Assembly (NCBI GenBank): GCA_039933355.1
Contig: JBDTOH010000003.1
Coordinates: forward strand, 1-32,082
Source of the DNA: Gemmatimonadota bacterium
Lineage (GTDB): Bacteria > Gemmatimonadota > Gemmatimonadetes > Gemmatimonadales > GWC2-71-9
Direction: 5' to 3'
Length of the DNA: 32,082 nt
Shown piece by piece: positions 343-31,999 of the stretch; position 1 is the first letter of the stretch; each line of letters begins with the position of its first letter. A program made the translations under genes and the position numbers. The notes below the pieces were generated by a model. That model saw nothing but the letters and a program-made list of their open reading frames with translations, ran no database searches and was not told the DNA's origin.

Positions 343-1659
343 CTACCAAAGCGGCTTCGAGAGGCGAATGAACCAGACTTCACCGAAGTCCCGAAGGCCG
401 GTCGGTGGCAGGATCTTGACCGCGAGCCCGGTCGGCGAGTCCGTCACCCCGAAGTCGTCGTCGTTGGACACGGCGATCGACCACCGGTCCATGACGGTGA
501 CGCCCTCCATCTTGTCGTGAGGATAGCCTAACAGAAGGAGGTCGCTCACCAGCGCTTTCGACACCGGCTTGATGTTGGCGGCCGCCACCTCGGCCGAAGA
601 GAGGCTTTCCAGAGTCTTGCCGTTGACGAGAAGGCCGGTCGGTCCGTTTTGCGGGTCGCTGACATCGGTCGCTCCGCGGAGATCGATTTTGTAGACCTTT
701 TTCTGGATGGCGGCCGGGGACCCGAGCGCGAAGTCGCCGTCCCGCTCGATGACCAGGAACGTGTTCGCGCTGATAGCGGCGATCTCAGACACGGAGAAGT
801 TGCTGGCGTCGAGCGGATAGAGGAACTGTTTGGTCTTGCCGGTCGCCGTTTCGTACCAGACGATCCGCGTAAAGGTGGAGACCCGGCCGGCCGCCCGCGG
901 GTTGTCGAGCGGCGATTGCATGATCCCGATCAGGATCCCGCCGTCGTCCCGCCCCGCCGCGAGGCCTTCCATCCCACGGTTGACCCGCCGCTGCGCGAGG
1001 ACGAGCGGCAGCGGCTTCGCGCTGGAGAACGGATTGATTCGCTCGATCGTCCGGCCGTTGGCGTCGAAGTGGACCAGGTGCGGTCCGTATTCGTCGGACA
1101 CCCAGAAGGTGCCGTCGGGAAGGGCAACTAGTCCCTCGGAATCGAGCCCGTTCGGGTCGAGCGGAAGGGGCGAACCGTCCGGAGCGACCGGAACCTCGCC
1201 GGTGCCGCCCGCGCCGGGAGGGTTCGGGAGACCCGTGATGGCTGAGCCGTCCGCGTTCGTAAGATGAAGAATTCGCTGAATCTGGAGCTTCAGATTCCCC
1301 TCGTTGCTGACCCGGCGCGCCACCGCGATCTCCGGGGAGAACGACGGCACCGCGAAGGCGATCGCTCCGCCCGGAGCGGCATAGTTGGGTCCCCGGTCCG
1401 TGAGCAGGTAGAAGGTTTGCGGGTCGCCGGGCTTCCGCGCCATGGCCGACCCATAGCCGCTGTGCGAGACGTCGATGCCATTGACGGTAGCGAGGATCGA
1501 GCGCGGCTCGACCGGATAGATGGCCGCGACGCCGGCGGGCCCCGGCGAGAGCTCGAGGTTAGGCGCTCCGGCCCTGGGCGCGCTCATCGGCTCGTCCGCC
1601 TGGCACGCGCCTCCGAGGGCGGCTGCGGCGATGGCAAGGATCATCCTGCGACTAAGCAT
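343..1659 (-). CDS. Esterase-like activity of phytase family protein, predicted lipoprotein
   Basis: Motifs LTDRGPN, LDSEGL, WVSDEYGP, NRGMEGL, DKMEG and NDDDFG. Start moved to ATG 1659 (GGAG upstream). Signal peptide with lipobox-like LGGAC. Confidence 0.85.
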   Translation of the reverse strand: MLSRRMILAIAAAALGGACQADEPMSAPRAGAPNLELSPGPAGVAAIYPVEPRSILATVNGIDVSHSGYGSAMARKPGDPQTFYLLTDRGPNYAAPGGAIAFAVPSFSPEIAVARRVSNEGNLKLQIQRILHLTNADGSAITGLPNPPGAGGTGEVPVAPDGSPLPLDPNGLDSEGLVALPDGTFWVSDEYGPHLVHFDANGRTIERINPFSSAKPLPLVLAQRRVNRGMEGLAAGRDDGGILIGIMQSPLDNPRAAGRVSTFTRIVWYETATGKTKQFLYPLDASNFSVSEIAAISANTFLVIERDGDFALGSPAAIQKKVYKIDLRGATDVSDPQNGPTGLLVNGKTLESLSSAEVAAANIKPVSKALVSDLLLLGYPHDKMEGVTVMDRWSIAVSNDDDFGVTDSPTGLAVKILPPTGLRDFGEVWFIRLSKPLW

Positions 1660-1941
1660 CGAAGACTCCGGTGGTTGGGGGGTGACGCCAAACCGTAACC
1701 ACCGTTTGCCACGCTCTTGTCTCGGTCTCGCCACGAATGGACCACTTAGATTGGGGGTCCTTACCACACCGCCAAGGGGCGAGCCGCCTATGACCGACAT
1801 CCCCAAGCTGGCCCGGGTTGTCTGCTGGACGTACGCTACCGGAGGGCGGGCGGCGAACGCGGCTTCGCGGGCGCGGCCGCATGAGGGGTTAAATTGGGGC
1901 GACAGGCGGCGACGGCGGCCAAGCGGGCGAAAGGGACTCCA

Positions 1942-2370
1942 GTGACCGAAGCGACGACAGTGCCCGAAGCGGAGCGGGGCGCCGGAATTCATGTACTCCG
2001 GAGCAGCGCGCTGTGCCGGGCCTGGAACGGGATTCAATACAAGGCCGGGCTGTCAGGGAAGAATGTGGGGTCAAAGGAGCTGTCGATGAACGTCGCGACG
2101 GTTCCGCCCGGCGCCGTCGCGTATGCCCACATCCACGTCGACTTCGAGGTGATGTTGTATATCCTGCAGGGCAGAGTCCGTCACGCGTACGGAGAGAATC
2201 TGGCCGAGTCGGTCGATAACGGGCCGGGCGACTTCATCTATATCGAGCCGGGCGTGCCTCACGAGGTCTACAACCTGAGCGACACCGAGCCGGTGGTGGC
2301 GGTCGTCGCGCGGTCCGACGCGGGTGAGTGGGAGCACATCGTCGACTATCCGAGCAAGCGCCGGCCGTGA
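1942..2370 (+). CDS. Cupin domain protein
   Basis: AHIHxxFE...GDFIYIEPGVPH cupin motifs. GTG 1942 follows AAAGGGA. A TAAATT -10-like hexamer lies at 1890. Confidence 0.85.
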   Translation: MTEATTVPEAERGAGIHVLRSSALCRAWNGIQYKAGLSGKNVGSKELSMNVATVPPGAVAYAHIHVDFEVMLYILQGRVRHAYGENLAESVDNGPGDFIYIEPGVPHEVYNLSDTEPVVAVVARSDAGEWEHIVDYPSKRRP

Positions 2371-3868: not shown

Positions 3869-4815
3869 GCGGGTTAGGAAACGCCGCCCTCGACCACCTC
3901 CGGGACGTGCTCGAACGCCCCGACCTTTCGGGAACCCGCTACGATCTCGTCGAGCCGATCGCGCAGGGCGGAATGGGGACGGTGTATCGGGCCTGGGACC
4001 GGGAGCTCGCCCGCGACGTCGCGATCAAGGTGGTCCGGAGCGAGCTCGCCGATTCTGAAATCGCCGGCCGGCTCACCGGCGAGGCCAAGATTCTCGCCCA
4101 ACTGGAACACCCGGGCCTGGTGCCGGTCCACGAAGTCGGCCGGCTTGCGGACGGCCGGTCGTTCTACGTGATGCGCCTGGTTCGGGGCCAGGAGCTCGAC
4201 TTGGCGGCGCTGGAGGTGCGCACGTTGCCGGAGCGGCTTCGTCTCTATCTCAAGATCCTCGATCCGATCGCCTACGCACACTCGCGCGGCATCATCCACC
4301 GCGACCTCAAGCCCGGCAACATCATGGTCGGACCGTTCGGGGAGGTGCTCGTCCTGGATTGGGGCATCGCAAAGGCCGTGAGCACTCGGGAAGCCGCGGG
4401 GCCCGCCGAGCGCACTGCGGCGCTTCCCGGGGCCACGAATCCCGGAGCGGTGCTGGGCACGTACGGGTTCATGGCGCCCGAACAGGCGATCGGCGGATCG
4501 GTTGCAGTCGACCATCGCGCGGACGTCTATTCCTTAGGCGTAATCCTTCGGACATTGATCAACCCGGCCGGTTCCGGCGCGAAGCCGCTCGTCGCGATCA
4601 TCGCGCGGGCTACGGCGGCCGACCCCGCGGCTCGGTATGCCGGGGTCGGCGACCTCGCGGCCGATGTCTCGGCGTATCTCGACGGGCGGCCGGTCGCGGC
4701 GTATCACGAGAATCTGATCGAGCGGATCGGCAGATTCGTCTCGCGGCATCAGGTTGCGATCGGGCTCGTCGTGGCGTACTTGCTGATGCGGATCGTCCTG
4801 CTCGTCTTCCGCTAA
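3865..4815 (+). CDS. Hanks-type Ser/Thr protein kinase with a single C-terminal TM helix
   Basis: GGMGTVY, VAIK, HRDLKPGN, DWG (DFG variant), GTYGFMAPE and DVYSLG; hydrophobic C-terminus. Confidence 0.93.
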   Translation: MSGLGNAALDHLRDVLERPDLSGTRYDLVEPIAQGGMGTVYRAWDRELARDVAIKVVRSELADSEIAGRLTGEAKILAQLEHPGLVPVHEVGRLADGRSFYVMRLVRGQELDLAALEVRTLPERLRLYLKILDPIAYAHSRGIIHRDLKPGNIMVGPFGEVLVLDWGIAKAVSTREAAGPAERTAALPGATNPGAVLGTYGFMAPEQAIGGSVAVDHRADVYSLGVILRTLINPAGSGAKPLVAIIARATAADPAARYAGVGDLAADVSAYLDGRPVAAYHENLIERIGRFVSRHQVAIGLVVAYLLMRIVLLVFR

Positions 4816-4869
4816 AGGATTGCTCCGGCGTCTGGTACAGGACTCTGAACCCACCTCAAGGATCTCGGA

Positions 4870-5230: not shown

Positions 5231-5617
5231 ATGCCCCGACCGATGCATTTCGAGATTCACGCCGAGGTTCCGCAGCGGGCCATCGCGTTTTATTCCGGGC
5301 TCTTCGGCTGGACGTTCAATCAGTGGGCCGGCCAGCCCTATTGGCTGATCAAGACCGGCGAAACCTCTGAGCCGGGAATCGACGGAGGCTTGGTTCCACG
5401 GCAGGGCGCCTCGCCCGCGGACGGTCAGGCAGTGAACGCGTTTGCGTGCACGATCGCCAGCGTCGTGGTCGACGAGATCTGGAGCAAGGCCATCGCGTTA
5501 GGCGGGAGTGCCGCGCTGCCGAAGATGGCGATCCCCGGGGTTGGATGGCTCGCCTATCTCAAGGACACCGAAGGGAACATATTCGGCATCATGCAGAACG
5601 ACCCGGCCGCGAAATAG
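5231..5617 (+). CDS. VOC family protein (glyoxalase/bleomycin-resistance-like)
   Basis: HFEI..., FYSGLFGW, GIDGG, IPGVGWLAYLKDTEGNIFGI. Confidence 0.9.
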   Translation: MPRPMHFEIHAEVPQRAIAFYSGLFGWTFNQWAGQPYWLIKTGETSEPGIDGGLVPRQGASPADGQAVNAFACTIASVVVDEIWSKAIALGGSAALPKMAIPGVGWLAYLKDTEGNIFGIMQNDPAAK

Positions 5618-5619
5618 GG

Positions 5620-5732
5620 CGGCACGGCGGCAGGGCGGCAGGTAGCTCCGCTCGTGGCAAGATCCTCGAGTCTCGGCTTGGGGCCCGATGGACCAGTTAA
5701 GCGGAGCGCCCTGCCGCCTTGCCACCCTGCCG
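5620..5732. repeat. 33-bp inverted repeat built from CGGCA(G/A)GG octamers (REP/REPIN-like)
   Basis: Arms at 5620-5652 and 5700-5732 match at 28/33 positions, with a 47-bp spacer. Confidence 0.75.
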
Positions 5733-6382: not shown

Positions 6383-7282
6383 TCACTTCTTGGCGGGTGG
6401 CGCCGGTGCGGTCACGAGCGGCAGCTCCGCGCGGGCGGCGTAGTCCGCCATCGAGCCGTCATAGATCTTCGGCGAGTAGCCCATCAACCGGGCGATGAAG
6501 TAGAGGTGGCTCGCTCGAAGCCCGACCGTGCAGTAGGTCACGATCTGTTTCCCCCCGCCCGCGCCGGCGGCCGCGAACAGGCCTTGGAGCTTCGCAGCGT
6601 CGATGAATGGCGAGCTGTTTCCCTTGAGCGCCGCCGCCGAATCGGTGTAGGTCGCGTTCCAGGGGAAGAACACCGCGCCGGGAATGTGTCCGTGGCGGGG
6701 GATCTGTTCGCGGCTGGCCGGACCGTCGTACTCGGGTCTCGAGCGGCCGTCGAGCAGGAGGATGTCCGGGTCGTTTGCGTGGCTCCGAATCCAGGCAGCG
6801 TCGACGACGAGGTCGGTCCGGATGTGTGGCGTGAACGATCCCCGCTTGACGGTTGGCGCCTCGGTGCTGAGCGGCTTGCCGCTCGCGGTCCAGGCGCGGA
6901 GCCCGCCGTCGAGCAGCGCGGTCCGGTCCCCGTGCCCCACGTAGTCGAGGTCGAGGAACGCCCGCGGCATCATCCAGGTGTCGCCGTAGAGAATGACCCG
7001 GGAGTCGTCGGAGATGCCTAACGACTCGAAGATGGAGTCGAGCCGCTCGGCGGTCGGGATCTCGACCCCGGGCTCGCGGTCGTCGAACAGAACCATCGCG
7101 GAGATGAAGCGGGCCCCCGGCACGTGGCCCTGGTCGTATTCCTTGCGCTCATGGGCTACGTGCAGAATCACGACCTTCGGGTCGTTCAGGTGCTCCGCGA
7201 GCCAGCGAGCAGTCACGAGCAGGTCGGGCCGGGGCGCCGGGGCGGCGAGGGCATAACCGAGCAGCAGCAACGAGTTGAGCAT
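6383..7282 (-). CDS. Exported two-domain rhodanese/sulfurtransferase (copy 1)
   Basis: GHVPGA, LLDGG, GHIPGA, active-site loop YCTVGLRA and YDGS; N-terminal signal-like MLNSLLLLGYALA. Confidence 0.9.
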   Translation of the reverse strand: MLNSLLLLGYALAAPAPRPDLLVTARWLAEHLNDPKVVILHVAHERKEYDQGHVPGARFISAMVLFDDREPGVEIPTAERLDSIFESLGISDDSRVILYGDTWMMPRAFLDLDYVGHGDRTALLDGGLRAWTASGKPLSTEAPTVKRGSFTPHIRTDLVVDAAWIRSHANDPDILLLDGRSRPEYDGPASREQIPRHGHIPGAVFFPWNATYTDSAAALKGNSSPFIDAAKLQGLFAAAGAGGGKQIVTYCTVGLRASHLYFIARLMGYSPKIYDGSMADYAARAELPLVTAPAPPAKK

Positions 7283-7434: not shown

Positions 7435-8136
7435 ATGCTGTTGAACAACCTCATCGAGTCGCGCCGAGCCAGGCGGCCGTTAGGTCTCCAGGGCCTGGTG
7501 TCCTTCGGCCTCCACGTGGGTCTGGGCATCTTCGTGGTGACAGCGACCAGGTCGGCGCCGCCGAACGATCCGGAACGCATGGTCGCCACGCCCATCGCCC
7601 TGGCGCCGCCCGACCACCCCGACGTAAGACCCGCTCTGCCCCGCCCAGAGCCGAGCCAAGCCCCTCTTCCAACCGTCTCGGCGATCACCATCGCCCCTGT
7701 GACGGACGTTCCTGATTCGATCCCGCCGGTCGTGATCGGAGAGTCCTTCGACCCCAAGCTCTTCTCCGGCGGTATCGGCCCGACGGCCGCGTGTCCACCG
7801 ACCTGCGCGTCGAACAGCAATCCGATCGAAGCCGCGGTATTCCGCGAGGACGAGATCGATGAACCCGCGCGGGTTCTCAGCCAGCCTGCGCCGCGCTTTC
7901 CTCCAGTGCTCCGGGCAGCGGGTCGCGCGGGGCGAGTCACTCTCCAGTTCATTGTCGACACTGCCGGTCACGTCGAACCCGGTTCAGTCCGCGTCGTCGA
8001 AGCCTCCGACCCGGGCTTCGAGGCGAGCGCAACCGACGTCGTCCTGCACTCGAGATTCGTTGCCGGAAAGTCCAAGGGCCAAGCCGTCCGCCAGTTGATG
8101 AGTCAGACGTTCAGCTATCGCATCAATGCCCAGTGA
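7435..8136 (+). CDS. tonB: Energy transducer TonB family protein
   Basis: N-terminal TM containing SFGLH, Pro-rich linker and C-terminal domain (PRFPPVLR..GRVTLQFIVDTAG). 14-bp 3' overlap with the convergent gene. Confidence 0.85.
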   Translation: MLLNNLIESRRARRPLGLQGLVSFGLHVGLGIFVVTATRSAPPNDPERMVATPIALAPPDHPDVRPALPRPEPSQAPLPTVSAITIAPVTDVPDSIPPVVIGESFDPKLFSGGIGPTAACPPTCASNSNPIEAAVFREDEIDEPARVLSQPAPRFPPVLRAAGRAGRVTLQFIVDTAGHVEPGSVRVVEASDPGFEASATDVVLHSRFVAGKSKGQAVRQLMSQTFSYRINAQ

Positions 8137-8992
8137 CAACCGGCAGGTCGCTCCGAGCCGACCAGTCCTGGAACGAGCCGTCATAGAGCGCGGCTTTGTA
8201 ACCCAGCAGGCGGGCCGTGTACCAGATCAGGCTCGCCTGCTGACCGATGTGGCAGTAGGACACTACGGTGTCGCTGGGCTTGACGCCCGCGGCCTCGAAC
8301 TGACTTCGAAGGGTGCTGAGAGCCTTGAACTTGCCGCCCTCGGCGATCACGGATCCGAACGGCATGCTGGCCGCCCCCGGGATCCGGCCGCTCCGAGCCT
8401 GATGCGCATCGGCGCCGTAGTAGAAGGTGCTGTCGCGGGCGTCGAGGATTCGCACCTTCTGGTCGGTGAGATGATCGCGGACCCAGTTGGCGTCCACGAC
8501 GACGTTAGGGTGCAAGGCGAGCTTGAAGGAGCTGCGGGCCGGTGTGGGGACGTCGGTGGAGACCGGGCGACCCTCGGTCTTCCAGAGCTCGAGCCCGCCG
8601 TCGAGGATCGAGATCCGGCCGCCGAGGCCGGCATACTCGAGCGTCAGAAACGTCCGCGAAGTCGGACTGAAATACTCGCCGGCGTGGACCAGGACGACGT
8701 ACGAGTCGTTCGAGATGCCGTGCGCCTCGAGCACGGAGTCGAGCTGCGCCTCCGGCGGGAGCTCGAGCGCGAGCCCGCCCTCAACGTGAGGGGCCGCCAG
8801 CTCGCGGAATGGATTCATGAACTGAGCGCCCGGGATATGGCCCTGGTCGTATGCGGGCTTGCTCCGAGCATCCCCGATCTGCAGGATGACGAGCTTCGGA
8901 TCGTTGCGATGCTCAGCCAGCCAGGCGGTGGAAACCAGCATCGGGATATCGGGCGATGCCGCGGTGGCGGCGAGCAGCAAGGCGAGGATCAT
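8123..8992 (-). CDS. Exported two-domain rhodanese/sulfurtransferase (copy 2)
   Basis: GHIPGA, ILDGG, GRIPGA, YCHIGQQA and YDGSFQDW; signal peptide MILALLLAATAA; GGAG RBS. Confidence 0.9.
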   Translation of the reverse strand: MILALLLAATAASPDIPMLVSTAWLAEHRNDPKLVILQIGDARSKPAYDQGHIPGAQFMNPFRELAAPHVEGGLALELPPEAQLDSVLEAHGISNDSYVVLVHAGEYFSPTSRTFLTLEYAGLGGRISILDGGLELWKTEGRPVSTDVPTPARSSFKLALHPNVVVDANWVRDHLTDQKVRILDARDSTFYYGADAHQARSGRIPGAASMPFGSVIAEGGKFKALSTLRSQFEAAGVKPSDTVVSYCHIGQQASLIWYTARLLGYKAALYDGSFQDWSARSDLPVVTGH

Positions 8993-9874: not shown

Positions 9875-11007
9875 GGCGAGGAGGCCGCTCGCTCCAGGGT
9901 CCACGGTAGCGTTAGGGTAACGATCGCGCCGCCCTCCGGACCCCCGATCAGGCTCAAGCGGGCCCGCGATCCGAACCGCTGGATCAGCCGGTTTCTCACG
10001 TTGGCGAGGCCAATGCCCACGCCCGACGAGGAGCCGCTCGGACCGGGACCGTCGTCCCGCACGCGGATAACCAGGTCGTCCCCGGTTCGATGCGCCTCGA
10101 TCTCGAGCCGGCCCGCGGCGGCGCGCTTGGCAATCCCGTGCCGGAGCGCGTTCTCGACCACGGGCTGAAGGATGAGATGCGGGACGATTGCGGCCCGAGT
10201 CGACTCATCCGCCTCGATCGATGACGTGAGCCGGTCATGAAAGCGGATCTGCTCGATCGCCAGATATCTGGCGACGAACTGGAGCTCCTCATCGAGCGTC
10301 ACGTCGGGGGTTCGCCCCTCGGCGAGCACTTGCCGGAGCAGATCGCTGAGGCCCGACAACATGGTGACGGCTTCGGAGCCGCGCCCCTCTCGGACCAGCA
10401 TCGCCACGCTGTTCAAGGCGTTGAACAGGAAATGCGGCTGGAGCTGGTTCTTGAGCGCGAGGAGCTTCGCCTCGGCAAGCTCCCGAGCGAGGAGCGACGC
10501 GGTGATGGTCTGCTCCCGGAACCGATTGTAATACTCCCAGGCGAGCACCGTGCTGAGGACGAGGATATACGTGAGGGAATTGGTCGCGATGGTCCACGCA
10601 ATGCCGACCCAGTTTGCCCGGTGCCCCACCACCTGGAACAGCATTGGGAAGCTGGCGGGATAGCCGAAGAAATGCTGGAGCAAACGGACGATATCGATAT
10701 GCAGAATGACGAGGATCAGCCCGACCGCCACATGCAGAGTGACCTGGCGCGTCATCGACCGTTCCGACCCGATCACATGGCGGCGGAGCCAGAGAGTCGC
10801 CGGCACCGCGAGCGCCCACATGAGCCAGTTCGGAAGCTCCCGCGCGAGCGAGTGGGAGATGGTCTGCCAATCTTTCGGCAGGCCGGGCTCGCCCATTTCG
10901 AAATAGTGCTGGCTGGCGGCGATCAACCCGAGGAGCAACGAGGTGGCGAAGAGCCACGTCGCGGAGACTCGCCTCGGGATCTGGGCTCGGGCAGAGGGTT
11001 CGGGCAT
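9871..11007 (-). CDS. LytS/YehU-like membrane sensor histidine kinase
   Basis: About 4 N-terminal TMs; LKNQLQPHFLFNALN H-box, LQPVVENALRHG, DDGPG and GIGLANV. Confidence 0.93.
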   Translation of the reverse strand: MPEPSARAQIPRRVSATWLFATSLLLGLIAASQHYFEMGEPGLPKDWQTISHSLARELPNWLMWALAVPATLWLRRHVIGSERSMTRQVTLHVAVGLILVILHIDIVRLLQHFFGYPASFPMLFQVVGHRANWVGIAWTIATNSLTYILVLSTVLAWEYYNRFREQTITASLLARELAEAKLLALKNQLQPHFLFNALNSVAMLVREGRGSEAVTMLSGLSDLLRQVLAEGRTPDVTLDEELQFVARYLAIEQIRFHDRLTSSIEADESTRAAIVPHLILQPVVENALRHGIAKRAAAGRLEIEAHRTGDDLVIRVRDDGPGPSGSSSGVGIGLANVRNRLIQRFGSRARLSLIGGPEGGAIVTLTLPWTLERAASSP

Positions 11008-12192: not shown

Positions 12193-12195
12193 GAC

Positions 12196-13611
12196 CTAAC
12201 GCTGGTCGCGTCGAGGCGGCTCGTCGCAAACGGCCGGTAACCCTTCCAGCGTGCCCTTCACCAGCACATGCAGCGTGGCCGCCCGCGCGCATCCGAAGCC
12301 CGATCCGTGCGCGGTATTGGCGACCACGATGTGCCGGCTCACCGAAAGCGTCCGGGCGACTCGCGCACCCATCTCGGGCGGGGTCACCGGATCAAAGAAG
12401 CCGGAGAGCAGGAGCGTCGGAATATTCGAGCTGAGCGGGCGTCGCTCCGATTCGGCCACCGGCTTCGCTTCCCAGCCGGCGCAGGCGCCCCGGTACTCGT
12501 CCAGCAGATACGAACCGATGAAGCTCCCTTGATACTGCGCTTTCGCCGCATCGTCCCCGATGAATGGGATGTCCTCGGAGCAGAAGATGGAGAAGTGGAG
12601 TCCGTCGGAGAATTCCCCGGCGAAGCTCGCCACCCGCTCCCAATAGCGCTGGGCGAACTCGCTCAGGTCACTGCCGGCGGCGGCCCGGTGAATCATCCCG
12701 GGAAGGCCGCGCGAGGCTTCGGCGGAGTAGAGCACGCCCCGAACGGCATAGCCGAAGTCTCCCAGGCTCATCGTCACCGGGGCCGGTTCCGCACCGGCCT
12801 TGACGCGCACCGTGGCCTGGACCGGCCCTTTGCGGAACCGTTCGACGATCGTCGCGAAATCCTGGTCGAGGGTGGGGAAGGAGTCTCGGCAGGCGGCCCG
12901 CTCGCGGCAGCTCGCAAGCTGATGGTCGAGCGAGGCCTGAAGGGTCCGCGCGTAGGTGAGCGGGGCGGCGAAGTCGAAGGGCACGACGCCGTCGAGCACG
13001 GCCGCCGCCACCCGGTCGGGGAATCGCCGCATGTACGCCTGCGCGAGCCGGGTACCGTAGGACCCGCCCCACAGAATGACCCGGTCGTAGCCGAGCGCCT
13101 GGCGGATGTCGTCGATGTCGGCGACCGCGAGGTCGGTGCCGTAGAGCGTTAGGTTCGCCCGCGGGGACAGCGCTTCCCGGCAGCGCCGCACCATGTCGGG
13201 GTGGAAGACATGTCCAAAGGCGGCCGCCGGATTCTTGAGACCTTCGGTCTCGCAGTCGAGCGGGTTCGATCCACCGCTGCCTCGCTGGTCCACGAGCACG
13301 ATATCCCGGATCTCACGGACCGGTTTGAGCACGCCGCTGCCGAGCCCGGCGAGGGCGGTGCTGCCCTGACCGGGTCCCCCCGCAAACAGAAACACCGGCT
13401 CCTTGCCCGCCGGCAGCTGGGCTCGGAGCACCACAAAGTTGATATCGATCCGGCGGCCTGCCCGCGAGGCCCGGTCCTCGAAGACCGAATAGGTGCCGCA
13501 CTCGCTCTTGGGGCCGAGCTTGCTGGTCTCGCACGGATGGGTGACCTGGGCCGCACCGGCGCGGGCGACGCTCGCGATCAGGACTGTCGAGCGCAAGAAC
13601 CGGTTGAGCAT
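12196..13611 (-). CDS. Exported alpha/beta hydrolase, TAP-like peptidase (S33)
   Basis: AGGPG, VDQRGSG, nucleophile GGSYG, LDG, FDPVTP and AHG; signal peptide ending AGAAQ. Confidence 0.88.
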   Translation of the reverse strand: MLNRFLRSTVLIASVARAGAAQVTHPCETSKLGPKSECGTYSVFEDRASRAGRRIDINFVVLRAQLPAGKEPVFLFAGGPGQGSTALAGLGSGVLKPVREIRDIVLVDQRGSGGSNPLDCETEGLKNPAAAFGHVFHPDMVRRCREALSPRANLTLYGTDLAVADIDDIRQALGYDRVILWGGSYGTRLAQAYMRRFPDRVAAAVLDGVVPFDFAAPLTYARTLQASLDHQLASCRERAACRDSFPTLDQDFATIVERFRKGPVQATVRVKAGAEPAPVTMSLGDFGYAVRGVLYSAEASRGLPGMIHRAAAGSDLSEFAQRYWERVASFAGEFSDGLHFSIFCSEDIPFIGDDAAKAQYQGSFIGSYLLDEYRGACAGWEAKPVAESERRPLSSNIPTLLLSGFFDPVTPPEMGARVARTLSVSRHIVVANTAHGSGFGCARAATLHVLVKGTLEGLPAVCDEPPRRDQR

Positions 13612-13624
13612 TGCAGAGCCTGGG

Positions 13625-14617: not shown

Positions 14618-14667
14618 TGGCGTCTCAGCTGAAGAATTTGGAAATCGAAGAACAGTCGGTTAGGCGA

Positions 14668-18130: not shown

Positions 18131-18163
18131 CAGGTCGGCAAGGCCGCCTTGCCGTCCTGTTAG
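18127..18163. terminator. 37-bp near-perfect palindrome joining two convergent stop codons (probable bidirectional terminator)
   Basis: CTAACAGGTCGGCAAGGC-C-GCCTTGCCGTCCTGTTAG; one mismatch in 18 pairs. Confidence 0.65.
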
Positions 18164-21774: not shown

Positions 21775-22266
21775 ATGACACTGCGCCAAATTTCCCCGAT
21801 CGCCGTCATCCTCCTCCTGTTAGGCGGCCGCGCCGCGCTCGCGCAAGAGAAGAAGGAGGGCCAGGACGATGTCGCCAAGAACCTCTTTGCGCCGGAGTTG
21901 GTGCTCAAACACCAGCAGGAGATCGAGCTCAAGCCGGCCCAACGCGCGGCCGTGCTCGCGGCAATCAAGCAAGTCCAGACCGACCTCATCGATCTCCAGC
22001 TCAACATGGCCGAGCAGTGGCAGGGTCTGGTCAAGTTGCTGGAGGGGACGGAGATTGATGAGAAGAAGGCGCTCGAGCAGGTCGACAAAGTGCTGACCAC
22101 TGAGCGCGACATCAAGCGGATGCAGCTGAGCCTTCTGCTCAAAATCAAGAACACGCTGACCCGGGATCAACAGGCCAGGCTCCGAAGTCTTCGGGATCGG
22201 CCCGGAGGGGATGGTGGCGGTTCAGCCGAGCGGATGGACGAGGCACTTTCACGCCAACAACAGTAG
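21775..22266 (+). CDS. Periplasmic Spy/CpxP/ZraP-like protein
   Basis: Signal peptide ending ALAQ; helical; LKPAQ and LTRDQ (LTxxQ) motifs. Confidence 0.78.
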   Translation: MTLRQISPIAVILLLLGGRAALAQEKKEGQDDVAKNLFAPELVLKHQQEIELKPAQRAAVLAAIKQVQTDLIDLQLNMAEQWQGLVKLLEGTEIDEKKALEQVDKVLTTERDIKRMQLSLLLKIKNTLTRDQQARLRSLRDRPGGDGGGSAERMDEALSRQQQ

Positions 22267-23524: not shown

Positions 23525-24547
23525 GTGCTCTCCCAGTGTTTCTTCTGTGACGCTTCCTTAGGCCGGAACGACGAGATCGAATCGATGCCGATCGGTCGCC
23601 GCTTGGCGTTCGATTCGGCGAAGGGCCGGTTCTGGGTCGTCTGCAAGTTTTGCGGCCGCTGGAACCTCGTCCCGATGGAGGAGCGGTGGGAGGCGATCGA
23701 GACGTGCGAGCGAAAGTTCCGCGGCACCAAAGTCCGTCTTTCCACTGATCAGATCGGGCTCGCTCGGCTGGCGAGCGAAGTCGATCTGGTCCGGGTTGGG
23801 AAGCCGGTCCTTCCCGAGTTCGCCGCCTGGCGATACGGGACGGAGCTGTGGCGGCGCCACCGGTTGAGTCTCCCCCGCAAGGCCGCGCGACTCTTCGGCG
23901 TTCCCGCCCTCGTTCTCGGAGCTCCCGTGATCGGGGCGGTCCTCGGTCCCGTGGGCGGTATGGCGTACGTGGGGGCGTTGGCGCTCGCGGCCTATCAGCG
24001 CCGGAAACGGCCGGCCCTGAGCATCGTCCTTTCCCGGGGCGACCGGCTCGATCTCTCCCGGGAGCAGGTCCAGGCTGCCGAGCTGATCCGGGCCGAAGAC
24101 GAAGCGGACCAGTGGGCGATGTGGATCCAGTGCGATTCGGGACATCTGGTCCCGCGCGGCTGGAAGCTCGAGGAGACGGCCACGGGCGAGAAGCGGGCGC
24201 TGCTCACGGGAACCGACGGAAGGATCGCCGCGGCGCGGGTGCTCCCCCAGCTCAATCCGTTAGGCGGGAACCACGAAGCGGTCCAGAACGCGGTCCGCTG
24301 GCTCGAAGCGGCCGGCGGCCCGGGCCGCGCTCTTCACACCTTCGCCCGATCCAAGTGGGTCCGGCCGGCGTTCGAGACGATCGAGCGCACCCTCGTCACA
24401 CTCCATCCCGATGCCCGGCTCGGTCTCGAGATGGCCCTGCACGAGGATGAGGAGCGCCGCGCGCTCTACGGCGAGCTCACCATTCTCAAGTGGGCGTGGG
24501 AACGCGAGGAGTCGGTCGCCGCGATCGTGGACGGCATCGACGGTTAG
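23525..24547 (+). CDS. Hypothetical membrane protein with N-terminal CxxC...CxxC zinc-ribbon-like motif
   Basis: GGAGG RBS before GTG; CFFC and CKFC pairs; central hydrophobic hairpin; coding-like codon usage. Confidence 0.75.
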   Translation: MLSQCFFCDASLGRNDEIESMPIGRRLAFDSAKGRFWVVCKFCGRWNLVPMEERWEAIETCERKFRGTKVRLSTDQIGLARLASEVDLVRVGKPVLPEFAAWRYGTELWRRHRLSLPRKAARLFGVPALVLGAPVIGAVLGPVGGMAYVGALALAAYQRRKRPALSIVLSRGDRLDLSREQVQAAELIRAEDEADQWAMWIQCDSGHLVPRGWKLEETATGEKRALLTGTDGRIAAARVLPQLNPLGGNHEAVQNAVRWLEAAGGPGRALHTFARSKWVRPAFETIERTLVTLHPDARLGLEMALHEDEERRALYGELTILKWAWEREESVAAIVDGIDG

Positions 24548-24566
24548 GCAGACCGCCGGCCCGCGT

Positions 24567-27026
24567 CTAGGCCACCACCAGACTCAGCAGCCGTCCCGGC
24601 ACGTAGACCCGTTTGACGATTGTCTTTCCCGAGACGAACTTCACCACGATCGGGTCTCTCAGAGCTCGCGCCACGACCAGCTCTTCGGTCGCGGACCGGG
24701 GCACCCGGACTTTCGAGCGCGTTTTCCCGTTGATCTGAATCGGTATCTCCACGTCCGCCGTGACCGTCAGCGCCTCGTCCCACGTCGGCCACGACGCGTC
24801 GAACACCGAGGTCTTCCGGCCCAGCTGCTCCCAGCATTCCTCCGCGAAGTGAGGCGCGAACGGCGCCAGCATCACGACCAGATCCTTCACGATGCTTCGC
24901 TCCGAGCAGTTGGACTCGCGGATCGCGTTGAGCAGCTCCATCAGCGCGGCGATGGCGGTGTTGTAGCTCAGGACCTCGAGGTCGTGGGTCACCTTCTTCT
25001 TCGTCTGCTGCCACTTGACCACGACGTCGTGGTGAACCTCGTCACCGATCAGGGTCTTCCGCGAGCATTGGCTCACCAGGTCCCAGACCTTGTCGAGGAA
25101 GCGGCGAGGCCCGTTGATACCGGCATCGCGGAAGTCTCCTCCCTCCTCGAACGGGCCCAGAAACATCAGATACATCCGAAGGGTATCGGCGCCCCATTTC
25201 CCGATGTACTCATCGGGCGTGACGACGTTGCCCTTTGTCTTCGACATCTTCGCGCCGTCTTTGATGATCAGCCCGTGGGCGCGGAACTTTCGGAACGGCT
25301 CGTCGAAACCAACAAGGCCGAGGTCGTTCAGCACCATCGTGATGAAGCGGGAATAGAGCAAGTGGAGCACTGCATGCTCATTCCCGCCGATGTACGACGT
25401 GACCGGCAGCCACTTCTCGATCCTCGAACGGTCGAACGCGCGGTCCGCAAAGTCGGTGTTCGGGTACCGCAGGAAGTACCACGCCGAGTCGAGAAAGTTG
25501 TCGGAGACATCGGTCTCGCGCCGTCCCTGCTTCCCGCACTGCGGGCAAGGCGCATAGTACCACTCCTTGTGCCGCGCCAGCGGCGAGACGCCCGAATCGT
25601 CGGGGTGGAAATCCGGGATATACGGCAGCAGGACCGGCAGGTCCTTTTCAGGGACAGGGACCGGCCCGCACCCGTCGCAGTAGATGATCGGAATCGGCGG
25701 CCCCCAGTAGCGCTGGCGCGAAATACACCAGTCATGGAGCCGATAGTTGACCACACCCTTACCGGCGCCCTTCTCCTCCAGCCAGGCCACGATCCCTTTG
25801 AACGCTTCGCCCGTTGGTAGCTCGGTGAAGTGCCCCGAGTTGACCAGCCTGCAATCGCCGTCCTCGATCATCGGCTCGCTCAGCGGCGAATCCGACCCCT
25901 CGTCCGCCTGAGCGACTACCCGGCGGATCTCGAGGCCGTACTTCGTCGCGAACGCAAAGTCCCGCTCGTCGTGTCCGGGAACGGCCATGATCGCACCGGT
26001 CCCATAATCCATCAGCACGTAGTCGGCGACCCAGACGGGGATCTTCTCGCCGGTCGCAGGGTTGGTCGCGAAGCCCCCGGTGAAGACGCCGGTCTTGTCC
26101 TTCTCCCCCACCTTCCGGGTGATGACGTCCTTTGCCTGGGTGGCCTGCCGGTAGGCTTCGACTGCCGGCCGCTCCGCCTTGGTGGTTAGGCGGTCGACCA
26201 GTGGATGCTCGGGAGCCAGAACCATGAACGTCGCGCCGAAAATCGTATCGGGGCGCGTGGTGAACACTCTGATCACCTCGCCGCCGTCGATTGGAAAATC
26301 GATCTGGGCCCCCTCGGACCGCCCGATCCAGTTCCGCTGGGCCGTAATCGTCCGGTCCGACCAATCCATCTTCGACTTGTCGTCGAGGTTGGTGAGCAGG
26401 CGCTCCGCATAGTCGGTGATCCGAAAGAACCACTGCTCCAGCAATCGCTGTTCGACCGAAGTCCCGCAGCGCTCGCAGATGCCGCCTTCGGCCTGCTCGT
26501 TGGCGAGGACGGTCTTGCAGCTGGGGCACCAGTTGACCGCGGCCTTCTTCCGATAGGCCTTTCCGGCCTTGAGGAGCTGAAGAAACAACCACTGAGTCCA
26601 CTTGTAGTACTCGGGATCGGTCGTCGAGAACGAACGGCTCCAGTCGAACATCCCGCCCAGCGCGCTCAGCTGGCGCCGGAAGTTCGCGATGCTCTTGGGG
26701 ATCAGCTGCCCGGGGTGGATGCCGATCTTGAGCGCGTAGTTCTCGCTCTGAATTCCGAACGCATCGAAGCCAATCGGCTCGAAGACCTGGTAGCCCTGAA
26801 GCCGCTTGAACCGCCCGTAGACGTCCGCGCCGGTGAACGCGAAGACATTGCCGACGTGGAGACCCTCGGCCGACGGATAGGGGAACATCATCAGGTTGTA
26901 GAACGGCCTGGCTGCGAGGTCGAGATCAGGCTCGTTGGTGCGCCGATCGCTCCAGCGGGCCTGCCATTTCGCCTCGACCCGATCGGGATGGTAGGCGCCG
27001 TCGTCCGGAATGTGGGGTTCGGTCAT
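24567..27026 (-). CDS. leuS: Leucine--tRNA ligase
   Basis: MFPYPS..LHVGN (HIGH), CP1 editing domain (FTTRPDT, GTGAIMAVPGHDERD), DWCISRQRYWG, KMSKTKGN and QINGK. Confidence 0.98.
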   Translation of the reverse strand: MTEPHIPDDGAYHPDRVEAKWQARWSDRRTNEPDLDLAARPFYNLMMFPYPSAEGLHVGNVFAFTGADVYGRFKRLQGYQVFEPIGFDAFGIQSENYALKIGIHPGQLIPKSIANFRRQLSALGGMFDWSRSFSTTDPEYYKWTQWLFLQLLKAGKAYRKKAAVNWCPSCKTVLANEQAEGGICERCGTSVEQRLLEQWFFRITDYAERLLTNLDDKSKMDWSDRTITAQRNWIGRSEGAQIDFPIDGGEVIRVFTTRPDTIFGATFMVLAPEHPLVDRLTTKAERPAVEAYRQATQAKDVITRKVGEKDKTGVFTGGFATNPATGEKIPVWVADYVLMDYGTGAIMAVPGHDERDFAFATKYGLEIRRVVAQADEGSDSPLSEPMIEDGDCRLVNSGHFTELPTGEAFKGIVAWLEEKGAGKGVVNYRLHDWCISRQRYWGPPIPIIYCDGCGPVPVPEKDLPVLLPYIPDFHPDDSGVSPLARHKEWYYAPCPQCGKQGRRETDVSDNFLDSAWYFLRYPNTDFADRAFDRSRIEKWLPVTSYIGGNEHAVLHLLYSRFITMVLNDLGLVGFDEPFRKFRAHGLIIKDGAKMSKTKGNVVTPDEYIGKWGADTLRMYLMFLGPFEEGGDFRDAGINGPRRFLDKVWDLVSQCSRKTLIGDEVHHDVVVKWQQTKKKVTHDLEVLSYNTAIAALMELLNAIRESNCSERSIVKDLVVMLAPFAPHFAEECWEQLGRKTSVFDASWPTWDEALTVTADVEIPIQINGKTRSKVRVPRSATEELVVARALRDPIVVKFVSGKTIVKRVYVPGRLLSLVVA

Positions 27027-28765: not shown

Positions 28766-28769
28766 GCGG

Positions 28770-30479
28770 CTACAGCCGCCTCGCCACCGCCCGCACTACC
28801 ATCCGAATCCGGTCCCGCCACGGGAGCCGCGCCAGATTCGTCTTCACGACACCTCGCGTGAAGAAAGTCTTCTCCGAGTAGTCGATCGCGGTGTCGATCA
28901 CGACCGGGCGGCCCGCCTTCAGGATCTCCACCACCCCGCCTAACACCGAATCCAGGTCGCGATCGCGATCGAGCCGGAGCCACTCAATGCCGACCGCTTC
29001 GGCGAGGCTGCCCACATCGTAGTCCGGGAGGATGCTGGCCGCTTTCTGGTTGAACGCGGTGTCCTGGAACTGCGCGATCTGGGCGAGCTCGCCGTCCCTC
29101 AGGATGAAGAACGCGATCGGGAGCCGCTGGCTGGCGGCGGTGAGGAGCTCGAGCCCGGTCATGAGCAGCGCGCCGTCGCCCGCGAGCGCCACGACCGGCG
29201 CGGCCGGCCTGGCGAGCTTGGCCCCGATAGCCGCAGGGACCGAGTACCCCATGCACGAGTAGTCCACCGGGGCGAGGAACCGGCCCGGCGCCTCGAGGAC
29301 GAGCAGCTCCATCGCGAGAAAGGTTCCGTTGCCGCTGTCGGTCGTGTAGATCGTCTCCGGACCGAGCCGGCTCTGGATTCCGTCGATCAGCGCGGCCGGC
29401 GATACCCGGCCGGCGGACGGATGGGCTCTCTGCGTTAGGCGGACGGCGGCCCGTCCGGCGGTGATCTCGGGGTCGACCGGTCCCGACCCCGGTCCGAGCT
29501 CGGCGAGCAGAGAGCGGACGAATTCGCAGGTGTCCGCCGTGATCGGGATCGCCGCGGGATAGTTCCGGTTGAACACGGCCGGGTTGATGTCGACGTGGAT
29601 CAGGTCACCGCGGGGAACGCACGAATAGCTGCCGGTCCCGACCTCGCTGAAGCGGAGCCCGATCGCGAGGGTGACATTGCAGCGGTCGGCGGCCGCGCGC
29701 GCGAAGGGGGGCGCCGCATCGCCGAAGCCGTTCCAGACAAACAGCGGGTGCGATTCCGGAAAGACCCCCTTGCCCTGAATGGTCGTCGCGACCGGCGCGC
29801 CCAACCGTTCCGCGAGCCGCACCAGCTCGGATCCTTGAGCGCCGAGACCGACATAGAGGAGCGGGCGCGCGCCGGGTGCAGTGAGCACCGCAGCGGCCCG
29901 GCGGACGAGCGCCGGGTCGCCCCGGGGTGGAACGAGCGCCGTCGGCAGGCCCCATTCGCTGGTATTGACGTCGTGCCGGGAGAGATAGAGGTCGACCGGG
30001 ACCTCGACCATCACCGGTCCCGGTGTCCCGCTCCGGGCGACCCGGGCTGCCTCGCGGATCGTCCGGTACAACTCGGCGCCGGCGGTGACGGAGTAGGTCC
30101 CCTTCGTGATCGGAGCCGCGATCGCCAGCTGATCGATGTCGTGCAGCTGATAGGCCTGGGCGCTGTCCCGCCGGATCCCGCAGCCTAACACGAGCAGCGG
30201 AATCCCGTCCATATACGCTTCCGCGATTCCCGAGAGGGCGTGCGTGAGCCCCGCGCCGGGGACGATGTTGACGCACGCGAGCTCGCCGGAAGACCGCCAC
30301 ACCGCGTCGGCCATGAACCCGCCGCTCTGCTCGTCGGTGATGAGGACGGTCCGGACCTTCGTGGACTTCGCGAGCGCGTCGTAGAGCTCGATGTTGTGGG
30401 TCCCCGGGATTCCGAAGGCGAACCGGACGCCCTCGTCTTCGAGCGCTCTCGTGACGATCTCGCCGCCGGTGAGCTTCAC
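28770..30479 (-). CDS. Thiamine-diphosphate-dependent enzyme (acetolactate synthase-like)
   Basis: FGIPGTHN, DEQSGGFMAD, PGPVMVEVPVD, MGYSVPAAIGA and GDG; GTGA overlap with the GMC stop. Confidence 0.9.
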   Translation of the reverse strand: MKLTGGEIVTRALEDEGVRFAFGIPGTHNIELYDALAKSTKVRTVLITDEQSGGFMADAVWRSSGELACVNIVPGAGLTHALSGIAEAYMDGIPLLVLGCGIRRDSAQAYQLHDIDQLAIAAPITKGTYSVTAGAELYRTIREAARVARSGTPGPVMVEVPVDLYLSRHDVNTSEWGLPTALVPPRGDPALVRRAAAVLTAPGARPLLYVGLGAQGSELVRLAERLGAPVATTIQGKGVFPESHPLFVWNGFGDAAPPFARAAADRCNVTLAIGLRFSEVGTGSYSCVPRGDLIHVDINPAVFNRNYPAAIPITADTCEFVRSLLAELGPGSGPVDPEITAGRAAVRLTQRAHPSAGRVSPAALIDGIQSRLGPETIYTTDSGNGTFLAMELLVLEAPGRFLAPVDYSCMGYSVPAAIGAKLARPAAPVVALAGDGALLMTGLELLTAASQRLPIAFFILRDGELAQIAQFQDTAFNQKAASILPDYDVGSLAEAVGIEWLRLDRDRDLDSVLGGVVEILKAGRPVVIDTAIDYSEKTFFTRGVVKTNLARLPWRDRIRMVVRAVARRL

Positions 30480-31999
30480 CACACGCTCCGGCCCGGCGCC
30501 AACCCCTGTCCCCATTCCCTCATGACGCCCTCGGCGACGCGGTCCGCGAGCCCCATGATCGTCAGATATGGATTGATCTCGACCGCATTGGGGAACAGGC
30601 TCGCGTCGGCAATCCGGAGCCACGGCCGCCCGTGGACCCGCCCCCATCCGTCGGTGACCGAGTCGGACGCCGAGGCGCCCATCGCGGACCCACCCATCAG
30701 ATGGGCCGCCGAGATCGAGATCGTGCCGGGAAGAAAGTGCCGTTCGCTGATCAGCTCGTCGATCCGGTCTGCATCGGACCTCTCCACGACCGGCGGGTTC
30801 GCCGACGGGGCGTGGACCCTAACGGCGCCCGCGGCGAAGAAAATCCTCGCGGCGGTTCGAGTCGCCCGTACCGTTGCGGCGATCACCTCCGGCGTGAACG
30901 TGTAGTGGACCATCGGCTCGCCGGTTTGGCTCACTGAAACGCGATTGCCCGGCGTCGCCTTGTCGCAGGCGAGGACCAGAATCATCTGAAGCCGGTCGAA
31001 CGCGCGCATGAACCCGCTATGCTCGGGGCCGAAGCCGGTCAGGTTCTTCGCAGTGGTGAACGGGAAGTACATGCAGGTCTCGAGGACGAACCCCTCGTCG
31101 GCTCCGCGGTCGAGATAGAAGCTCTTCGGATGTCCGACGTCGTTGGTGATCGGGCCCGGGTGCTGGCCCACGAGGATGTGGGCGGGATGACAGGTGAACC
31201 CTTCGCCTACCCGCGAAGGGAGGTTGGGAAGCTCTGAGCGGAGCAGCAACGGAGGCGTCCCCATGGTCCCGCCCGAGAGGACGACGATCTCCGCCGTGAC
31301 CTCGTAGCCGCCCGGCGCCCACTCGGATGTGGCCCCCTTCTCGCCGGGCATGGCCGCGCCGACCCTAACCCAGAGCCGCTGCTCGCCGAGCCGCCGCACC
31401 TCCGCCCGGGTGACCACCTCGACTCCCTGCCGCTCCGCGTTAGGCAGCTGGACCCGGTTGGTGCCCTGCTTGGCCGCGTTGGGGCAGCCCATGTTGCAGA
31501 GGCTCGAGCCCCGGCATCCCTTGAGGTTGAGCGGAAACTGCTCGGCATGGTAGCCGGCGTTGGCACACCCCAGAACGAAGAGCCGGTTGTTGTCGTTGAT
31601 GAGGTCGGGAGGCAGCAAGTGGACGTTGTTCTCCGCCATGTACCGCCGGCTTCGCGTCTCGAGATCGGAGTAGATCAGGCCGGGCACTCTCCACTGCTCG
31701 ATCACCCGCTTGGGTGCGATGAGCGAAGTCCCCGTGTAGACGATGGTCGACCCGCCGTAGCCCCGGGCAAAGGCGAGCGTCATGGTCCCGTCTTCGGTGA
31801 GGAACGCACCGCCCTCGGCGTAGAGCGCGCGCGCCATCTCGACTTCATGGCCGGTGAACTCGTCGTCCCGAAACCGAGGCCCTTGCTCGAACACGACGAT
31901 TCGCTTGCCGGTGGCGATCATCGGCGCGAGAGCTTGGGCCACCGTGCCGCCGCCTGCGCCCGCCCCGACGATGGCGACGTCGTAGTGCCGGACGGTCAC
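30476..31999 (-). CDS. GMC family FAD oxidoreductase
   Basis: VGAGAGG, GGSTIVY, CRGSSLCNMGC, AHLMGG, DASLFP and INP. GTG 31999 overlaps the upstream stop (alternative ATG 32014). Confidence 0.9.
   Translation of the reverse strand: MTVRHYDVAIVGAGAGGGTVAQALAPMIATGKRIVVFEQGPRFRDDEFTGHEVEMARALYAEGGAFLTEDGTMTLAFARGYGGSTIVYTGTSLIAPKRVIEQWRVPGLIYSDLETRSRRYMAENNVHLLPPDLINDNNRLFVLGCANAGYHAEQFPLNLKGCRGSSLCNMGCPNAAKQGTNRVQLPNAERQGVEVVTRAEVRRLGEQRLWVRVGAAMPGEKGATSEWAPGGYEVTAEIVVLSGGTMGTPPLLLRSELPNLPSRVGEGFTCHPAHILVGQHPGPITNDVGHPKSFYLDRGADEGFVLETCMYFPFTTAKNLTGFGPEHSGFMRAFDRLQMILVLACDKATPGNRVSVSQTGEPMVHYTFTPEVIAATVRATRTAARIFFAAGAVRVHAPSANPPVVERSDADRIDELISERHFLPGTISISAAHLMGGSAMGASASDSVTDGWGRVHGRPWLRIADASLFPNAVEINPYLTIMGLADRVAEGVMREWGQGLAPGRSVW

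Follow-up and report, generated by a model that had tools for sequence, protein, structure and literature searches.

Hyper-iterated genomic signal words are already known as a kind of feature, and to our knowledge the firm cases of sequence-specific ‘self’ words come from just two families of Proteobacteria, namely the DNA uptake sequences (DUS) of the Neisseriaceae and the uptake signal sequences (USS) of the Pasteurellaceae. The function of HIP1, the octamer GCGATCGC of cyanobacteria, has been debated for thirty years. Here we describe a word of strict core GTTAGG, whose full unit is the asymmetric octamer CGTTAGGC, in a stretch of 32,082 nt (hereafter the window) and throughout the Gemmatimonadales metagenome-assembled genome (MAG) that contains it as contig C3. 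This genome (G000) comprises 5,907,225 bases in 771 contigs (median 5.8 kb), with 66% G+C and a completeness of 88%. The nearest named relatives of the LeuS protein encoded in the window are from Gemmatimonadales or Gemmatimonadota MAGs, with at most 73% identity over the full length.

According to two studies, USS and DUS are evenly spaced and without orientation bias, show a non-coding excess and few singly mismatched copies, grow in number by point mutation, and act such that only the strongest single site of a fragment matters (PMC1939737; PMC2817400). The word described here resembles them in being short, non-palindromic, present about once per kb in both orientations without replication polarity, found in several frames of genes and, somewhat more densely, in spacers, generated by point substitution, accompanied by few near-copies, over-evenly spaced, and shared by related species. 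It differs from DUS and USS in being another word in another phylum, and in having only 8 bp without an extended flanking consensus. Moreover, DUS form graded dialects whereas CGTTAGGC is identical and patchy among genera, and the close inverted pairs common among Neisseria DUS are not enriched for CGTTAGGC.

For HIP1, Xu et al. report conserved sites and read these, together with periodicity, as a sign of a nucleoid or chromosome-organising role (PMC5861425). A later paper now argues that HIP1 is an uptake sequence, from its correlation with pilus and competence genes and from methylation-dependent transformation (PMC13756078). In the same sources HIP1, like CGTTAGGC, is an octamer in tens-fold excess, found in all frames and in spacers, conserved at orthologous sites, and variable or absent in some lineages of its group. 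HIP1 is however palindromic and contains the GATC and CGATCG sites of two known methylases, whereas CGTTAGGC is asymmetric and no methylase could be linked to it; HIP1 is nearly phylum-wide whereas CGTTAGGC is patchy within one order; and a periodicity of 10-90 kb is reported for HIP1, whereas CGTTAGGC is known from short contigs. Chi (read by RecBCD or AddAB) and the KOPS/AIMS words of FtsK share with CGTTAGGC the property of being over-represented, asymmetric 5- to 8-mers that mark the cell's own chromosome.

The window contains 27 copies of GTTAGG (17 on the forward and 10 on the reverse strand), against 3.99 expected (maximum 9) under dinucleotide-preserving shuffling, and 18 copies of GTTAGGC (12 and 6), against 1.31 expected (maximum 5 in 100 dinucleotide shuffles). 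The initial annotation of the window, made from its letters, had given the same counts, and these as well as its coordinates were exact on recount; the heptamer excess that it had estimated (3-4 copies expected for 18 seen) is confirmed, as is its statement that 27 of about 43 TTAG/CTAA tetramers lie inside GTTAGG (27/43, from 29 TTAG and 14 CTAA). An excess limited to the window, which would have spoken against a chromosomal signal, is not what was found, since GTTAGG occurs 4433 times across G000, with 3053 GTTAGGC and 1971 CGTTAGGC; 64% of the 6914 TTAG tetramers of the genome are inside GTTAGG. The hexamer, its heptamer and its octamer rank first among all 6-, 7- and 8-mers under Markov models of orders 1, 2 and 3, for which 105, 71 and 142 octamers are expected (a 14-28x excess). 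At orders 4, 5 and 6 the expectation rises to 902, 1761 and 2062 octamers and the excess is absorbed, because the 5- to 7-mers used in training are mostly pieces of the word. The Markov comparison thus upheld the excess at orders 1-3 and lost it at orders 4-6; the latter was read as absorption and not as refutation, and codon-preserving shuffles were relied on instead.

Genes were predicted with a simple, crude codon-usage caller built for this analysis, which returned 5034 genes in G000 (88% coding) and whose large frames match Pfam families (leuS, penicillin amidase, S41 peptidase). Shuffling synonymous codons within genes, which keeps the proteins and the codon usage of each gene, gave 425 GTTAGG against 3513 observed in coding DNA (8-fold) and 68 CGTTAGGC against 1657 (24-fold). 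As the TTA and CTA codons that owe their presence to the word are retained, the null is a conservative one. Shuffling codon order in the same genes gave 332 GTTAGG and 49 CGTTAGGC. The excess therefore remains, genome-wide, when codons and amino acids are preserved. The genome has 2742 TTA codons, 1943 of which precede a Gly codon, and 1862 of them stand in the full G-TTA-GG context.

GTTAGG is preceded by C in 68% of its copies in G000 and followed by C in 69%, and the logo holds no information beyond 8 bp. The core GTTAGG(C) proposed at first thus stands, and the full unit is refined to the octamer CGTTAGGC, asymmetric, with a strict core and flanks that prefer pyrimidines, T (532 and 545 copies) being tolerated better than G or A. 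Within genes (3507 sites wholly inside), all four stop-free frames are occupied, in sense as xxG-TTA-GGx (1862) and GTT-AGG (266), in antisense as CCT-AAC (876) and xxC-CTA-ACx (503), and the two stop-creating frames have 0 copies. Spacers hold 685 copies, at 0.95/kb versus 0.68/kb in coding DNA (1.4x). These intergenic copies keep their C flanks (57% and 56%, against 32% C in spacers as a whole), which shows that the flanks are part of the DNA word and not a side effect of codon context. Along genes, copies are spread roughly uniformly.

The origin of the copies was followed in 383 orthologue-like pairs, aligned codon by codon between G000 and 400-kb samples of two congeners (69% DNA identity). 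Where G000 has the word, its relatives mostly show GCTGGG or GCTCGG, or CCGAAC or CCCAAC; since they differ by in-frame substitutions, the word was written by point changes, mostly synonymous, and not by insertion of a unit. No halo of near-copies surrounds it, the 18 single-mismatch variants of the six core positions totalling 2935 against 3672 expected (order 1). The hallmarks of dispersed repeats of the REP or MITE type are not found either: no sequence is conserved beyond 8 bp, most copies are genic, and they arise by substitution instead of as unit copies. The earlier claim that the constraint acts on DNA and not on protein is thus borne out by the use of all stop-free frames, by spacers with the same C flanks and by synonymous recoding. 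As a separate observation, CGTTATGC, one mismatch from the word, is the only enriched internal variant (251 copies in G000, 3.3-5.9x expectation); 221/251 copies are in genes and no flanking consensus accompanies them.

The main new result of the analysis concerns spacing. Gaps shorter than 200 bp number 248 in G000, against 603-609 ± 20 under two random-placement nulls, and the gaps vary less in length, with a coefficient of variation of 0.82 against 0.97-0.99. In 2-kb windows the index of dispersion is 0.76, versus 0.98-1.00 in the nulls and 1.0-1.19 for five control hexamers. The pair-correlation ratio is 0.35-0.47 below 200 bp, 0.65-0.90 at 200-500 bp and about 1 beyond, alike in both relative orientations. 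Copies are thus more even than random and avoid each other within about 400 bp, a mutual avoidance that rules out any process working on each site independently and points to diminishing returns, one copy per few hundred bases being enough. Counts per contig are not over-dispersed (chi2 223, 257 df), and at p<0.02 a deficit of the word is seen in only 7/771 contigs, fewer than the ~15 that chance would give. Contigs richer in GC are also richer in the word (rho 0.55). Among the larger contigs, the lowest densities are those of C77 and C71, whose genes are ordinary ones (trehalose synthesis, Suf, MnmG) and which could be mis-binned.

Orientation is close to neutral, with 1029 forward and 942 reverse octamers in G000. 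Before correction, 57% of the copies are on the G-rich strand of their contig and the sense:antisense ratio in genes is 61:39. Once the replication and transcription components of third-position GC skew had been separated, on draft contigs, 54-57% of copies were found on the G-rich (putative leading) strand and 50-51% of the intergenic ones, and the remaining bias follows the gene strand. In 400 kb of the congener G007 spanning a skew minimum, 56% of copies are on the G-rich strand, and the split is about 46:49 on contig C1 (513 kb) of G014, from a hand count of the listed rows. The word is not KOPS-like in polarity, as had been argued from its strand split in the window, and it is hardly Chi-like. 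Two further candidates, a primase (Okazaki-priming) site and a MutH-like site for strand discrimination, were set aside because each predicts polarity or a palindrome.

In the genus of the window, 18/18 other genomes counted are enriched (18 of the 21 available, G031-G033 being left out), with 145-1061 copies or 32-210/Mb; G000 has 334/Mb, and about 9-12/Mb are expected for CGTTAGGC at order 2. Even in the weak congener G006, 400 kb contain 32 octamers where 3.7 would be expected, and 32/41 of the GTTAGG copies are full octamers with unrelated flanks. The survey was extended to 250 further genomes of the phylum, four of them unpublished (G082, G201, G176 and G121, all non-enriched and bearing only on the tallies of 108, 53 and 81 genomes below); a genome was considered as enriched at 30 copies/Mb, with rounded genome sizes and relatives that are not independent. 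Enrichment was found in 5/5 congeners, in 0/108 genomes (37 other genera) of the same family (maximum about 26/Mb), in 9/53 genomes of a second family, in 0/3 of a third and in 0/81 outside the order. The second family includes the densest genome, G236 (3896 copies in 4.0 Mb), followed by G162 (1100), G190 (815), G118 (709), G128 (452), G075 (191), G023 (173), G254 (110) and G213 (92). G030, of the third family, is enriched with 345 copies. In all, ten enriched genomes from eight or nine other genera of the order lie outside the genus of the window, and the word is patchy across at least three families. The initial description of a lineage-specific signal is therefore refined: the carriers belong to more than one lineage, and none of the 81 genomes outside the order is enriched. 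In 277 kb of G236, GTTAGG reaches 1.55/kb, is followed by C in 91% of copies, and shows 28 gaps below 100 bp against 61 expected.

In non-enriched genomes, the octamer sometimes recurs on one strand every ~500-1000 bp of a single contig (G037:C43, G093:C12, G097:C55, G087:C20). Such runs, which probably reflect domain repeats within large genes, account for the strand imbalance of the counts in a few genomes such as G072 and G149.

Conservation of individual copies was assessed at conserved x-Leu-Gly positions whose previous residue permits a G-ending codon. G000 and G007 share 13 sites where 4.1 are expected (one-sided Fisher p=1.7e-5), and G000 and G236, which belong to different families, share 11 where 6.0 are expected (p=0.01). 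Sharing beyond chance was not significant for G006, nor at Pro-Asn positions. Since sites are shared beyond chance at orthologous codons, some copies are old and have been kept, which supports selection or drive on the sites and an origin older than the split of the families, with many later losses. In an alignment of 30 leuS loci the word occurs in 2 columns only; leuS DNA is ~75% identical within the genus.

The word is thus an orientation-neutral, strict octamer at the DNA level, made by substitution, over-evenly spaced, partly conserved in position, and patchy yet identical across the order; that it is a real signal kept by selection or drive is in our judgement very probable. How it is kept can be proposed by analogy. 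Maintenance through DNA uptake and transformation, as a ‘self’ word comparable to DUS, USS or HIP1, is our leading if tentative explanation, ranked first because the properties published for uptake sequences match point by point and because HIP1 is argued likewise. A sequence-specific DNA-binding protein would then read CGTTAGGC as the ‘self’ word, and a force favouring about one copy per kb would keep it in the chromosome. Competent cells would preferentially bind, take up or recombine fragments bearing the word, so that alleles with the word would gain in frequency by molecular drive, to which selection for safe exchange between kin may be added. One copy per fragment would suffice, which would produce even spacing, and the benefit or drive would saturate at about one copy per 0.5-1 kb. 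The more specific proposition that CGTTAGGC is an ancient recognition word of the Gemmatimonadales, whose sequence-specific receptor governs which DNA is taken up or recombined, is advanced with more reserve. If true, this would be the first DUS-like system outside Proteobacteria, and an asymmetric one, unlike HIP1; retention of the word would be so long-standing that single sites are still common to different families, and its repeated losses would have been accompanied by loss of the reader; and the ~400-bp exclusion zone would report the minimal useful spacing of a tag.

Candidate reader genes were tracked in a panel of 58 genomes (22 enriched and 36 not), chosen by word density and including relatives that are not independent. 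G000 encodes ComEC, ComEA-like HHH_3 proteins at four loci, DprA, and PilM with a secretin on one contig. Several points weigh against an uptake function. The transformation machinery appears necessary but not discriminating, because non-enriched relatives carry the same genes: PilM_2 is in 56/58 genomes, enriched or not, and HHH_3 in 58/58, with extra copies only in the genus of the window and 1-2 in the enriched genomes of other families. ComP_DUS (PF16732), the type of receptor that serves DUS, scored above the cut-off in 0/58 genomes, although a receptor in other lineages need not be of that family. Close inverted pairs are not enriched, pairs within 60 bp comprising 17 and 12 in the two opposite orientations and 39 in the same orientation. 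An identical word in scattered genera with non-enriched genera between them contrasts with DUS, whose dialects vary among related genera, and requires either many losses or a transferable reader; a search of G000 proteins against G236 found no identity outlier that would signal recent transfer (449 hits with >70% coverage, maximum identity 77%, over 277 kb or ~7% of that genome). A clear imprint on the proteome is also missing: the word spells 30% of the Pro-Asn and 11% of the Leu-Gly dipeptides in G000, yet their over-representation is small (1.26 and 1.05) and the reverse dipeptide Asn-Pro (1.39) exceeds Pro-Asn. Finally, the organism is an uncultured MAG, and even spacing with conserved sites fits a site for a nucleoid protein equally well.

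HHH_3 matches themselves number 2-7 per genome in the genus of the window (in G000 on C58, C114, C338 and C74) and 1-3 in other genera of its family, which suggests an expansion of small tandem-HHH_3 proteins in this genus.

Such a nucleoid or chromosome-organising protein acting inside the cell, an idea put forward for HIP1 in 2018, with selection for sites that cover the chromosome at roughly regular intervals, is the strongest of the alternatives, though we regard it as rather unlikely. It would account for the over-even spacing with its ~400-bp exclusion zone, for the near-uniform density over contigs (chi2 223, 257 df; 7/771 word-poor), for the neutral orientation and for the copies conserved at orthologous positions, and Xu et al. 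conclude likewise for HIP1 (PMC5861425). No candidate protein was found for it, however, and a housekeeping function is not expected to be missing from 108/108 genomes of the same family.

A target of DNA modification or defence, in which a methylated ‘self’ mark would be useful and hence enriched, as in the methylation-dependent effect of HIP1, appears improbable. Its candidate enzyme is at C110:3354-8454 of G000 (locus L135), where a 988-aa Eco57I/MmeI_Mtase protein (a Type IIG-like N6-adenine methylase) is followed by a 721-aa SNF2 helicase that is DrmD-like. The pair is flanked by housekeeping genes, on a contig of native composition and rich in the word. CCTAAC is short and asymmetric with A next to last, which we take to be typical of MmeI-family and BREX sites, and modification systems typically show such a scattered occurrence of a single, unchanged specificity. 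The methylase is also single-copy in 20/21 other genomes of the genus. Its distribution is nevertheless not that of the word: it is present in 10/10 searched genomes of other families (38-43% identity), of which 8/10 are not enriched, all of its regions follow the species tree, and of two enriched genomes, G014 yielded no copy and G017 a truncated one. Neither a C5 methylase (PF00145) nor an N6_N4 methylase was found in G000 (88% complete), and restriction targets are usually avoided, not enriched. Independently of the word, a single-copy gene inherited vertically throughout the order (38-54% identity) is unusual for a restriction-modification or DISARM-like module.

Less probable again is an origin without selection, the word being left behind by mismatch repair or gene conversion with a sequence bias, which would turn near-cognates into the word. 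The model for this is very short patch (VSP) repair by Dcm/Vsr at CCWGG, which like the present case distorts word frequencies at the DNA level in every frame. GC-to-AT changes indeed make up most of those towards the word, and internal single-mismatch words are not enriched, CATTAGGC, CTTTAGGC, CGTTAAGC, CGTTAGAC and CGCTAGGC being at 0.10-0.29 of their order-1 expectation; such low ratios are however usual here for words containing TA (1st-5th percentile of the reference, 0.19-0.31). Biased repair predicts Poisson spacing, yet the sites avoid each other within ~400 bp and are not independent. Spacers, free of coding constraint, have only 1.4x the coding density, and orthologous codons share sites beyond chance. 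Neither Vsr (PF03852) nor a C5 methylase was found in the 88% complete G000, and the 8- to 24-fold excess is far above the VSP effects known to us.

A Chi-like site, at which AddAB or RecBCD would switch from degradation to recombination on the cell's own DNA, is very unlikely. In its favour, the word is the most over-represented octamer, with a mild bias to the G-rich strand (57%) and the sense strand (61:39), and G000 has one AddAB-like open frame with the nuclease domain PDDEXK_1 (C11, 1245 aa). Chi and KOPS are co-oriented with replication whereas CGTTAGGC is not, as judged from draft contigs, its polarity nearly vanishing once the gene strand is removed (50-51% in spacers). Chi readers were not found in most of the genomes enriched for CGTTAGGC: PDDEXK_1 is in 9/22 enriched and 15/36 non-enriched genomes, and the enriched genomes in which it was not found include G236, the densest, as well as G190, G118, G128, G007, G014 and G017; RecC (PF04257) was not found in G000 (88% complete). 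In the order at large, AddAB-like pairs of 1000-1250-aa frames with PDDEXK_1 (in G000 at C11:10593-11186) are patchy (24/58 genomes).

A protein- or codon-level effect, a dispersed repeat or an assembly artefact, for which the absorption at Markov orders 4-6 and the commonness of the Leu-Gly dipeptide might speak, is judged refuted, with next to no probability left to it, by the 8- to 24-fold excess over codon- and protein-preserving shuffles, by the presence of the word with the same flanks in four frames, on both strands and in spacers, by the lack of information beyond 8 bp with in-frame substitutions instead of insertions in orthologues, and by the enrichment of the same word in many separate genomes. 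The explanations are thus ranked in the order uptake tag, nucleoid site, modification mark, biased repair, Chi-like site and artefact, the rest of the probability being left to causes not listed here. The initial proposal of a target for a binding, uptake, repair or modification system is accordingly narrowed: Chi and VSP-like repair are weakened by gene content, polarity and spacing, and no correlation with the methylase or ComEA was found. More generally, none of the gene families compared (AddAB/RecBCD, Vsr, ComP-type receptor, PilM_2, ComEA (HHH_3) and the Type IIG-like methylase) tracks the word.

A non-exhaustive literature search found no paper assigning this word, in agreement with the initial remark that it matches no known one, and no link of CGTTAGGC or of any over-represented word to Gemmatimonadota. 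What is new is therefore this word itself, its asymmetry combined with HIP1-like behaviour, the phylum and the patchy distribution. As a third, independent and asymmetric octamer, it offers a natural experiment in a barely studied phylum, where sister genera of one order are with or without the word. Comparing gene content across the sister genera already sequenced could name the reader protein, whose identity would bear on whether such words originate from uptake drive, selection on chromosome structure or modification. In practical terms, CGTTAGGC marks its lineage strongly, which is of use in binning, in the detection of foreign DNA and in the design of DNA to which these bacteria might be receptive.

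The 27 copies of the window are given below by the coordinates and strand of their 6-bp core. Full octamers CGTTAGGC are read in sense at 5497..5502 (+) and 14316..14321 (-), both GCG-TTA-GGC; at 7017..7022 (-) in a rhodanese gene (6383-7282, -) and 16492..16497 (+) in a penicillin-amidase gene (15791-18130, +), both TCG-TTA-GGC; at 18782..18787 (-), ACG-TTA-GGC; and at 24259..24264 (+), CCG-TTA-GGC. Two more are antisense, at 29434..29439 (+), CGC-CTA-ACG, and 31439..31444 (+), CCT-AAC (Pro-Asn). The variant TGTTAGGC is always in sense, as CTG-TTA-GGC at 527..532 (-) in gene 343-1644 (-) (Leu-Leu-Gly), at 17503..17508 (+) and at 21819..21824 (+), and as GTG-TTA-GGC at 28939..28944 (-) in a TPP-enzyme gene (28770-30482, -) and at 30184..30189 (-).

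The copies GGTTAGGC are antisense at 1558..1563 (+) in gene 343-1644 (-), CCT-AAC (Pro-Asn), and at 26185..26190 (+) in leuS (24567-27026, -), CGC-CTA-ACC (Arg-Leu-Thr); two overlap stops, at 13624..13629 (+) the stop end of gene 13625-14527 (-) and at 24543..24548 (+) the TAG of gene 23525-24547 (+), and the one at 14659..14664 (+) is the only intergenic copy of the window. GGTTAGGA is in sense at 3873..3878 (+), GGG-TTA-GGA, in a kinase-like gene (3865-4815, +). CGTTAGGT is in sense at 7479..7484 (+), CCG-TTA-GGT, antisense at 13148..13153 (+), AAC-CTA-ACG, and overlaps the stop end of gene 12196-13611 (-) at 12195..12200 (-). CGTTAGGG is antisense at 8504..8509 (+), CCT-AAC (Pro-Asn), and at 9911..9916 (+) in a histidine-kinase gene, ACC-CTA-ACG (Thr-Leu-Thr), and in sense at 30818..30823 (-), GTT-AGG (Val-Arg), a frame also used by GGTTAGGG at 31364..31369 (-), in sense (Val-Arg). 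TGTTAGGG, at 18126..18131 (-), overlaps the stop end of gene 15791-18130 (+), which brings to 4 the copies overlapping gene ends. With these gene calls, the readings first given for the window (Leu-Gly, Pro-Asn, Val-Arg, Leu-Thr including leuS at 26185, stops, and the intergenic copy at 14659) were all recovered.

Since GTTAGG is a rotation of TTAGGG, a telomere-like reading was considered, and rejected as the copies are isolated and not in tandem. Short tandem arrays of other 7- and 8-bp units, mostly intergenic, do occur, at 5616-5642 in the window and throughout G000, where Tandem Repeats Finder detected 241 arrays of period 8 and 147 of period 7. Common units are AAGGCGGC, AAGACGGT, AGGGCGGC, AAGTCGG and AATAGGG, and one heptamer family is TTAGGGC. 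These arrays account for a second group of over-represented 8- and 9-mers, for example TAAGACGGT (246 copies, 232 of them intergenic). The window also contains an in-frame tandem repeat of 21 bp (3.3 copies, 28637-28705), inside gene 27554-28765.

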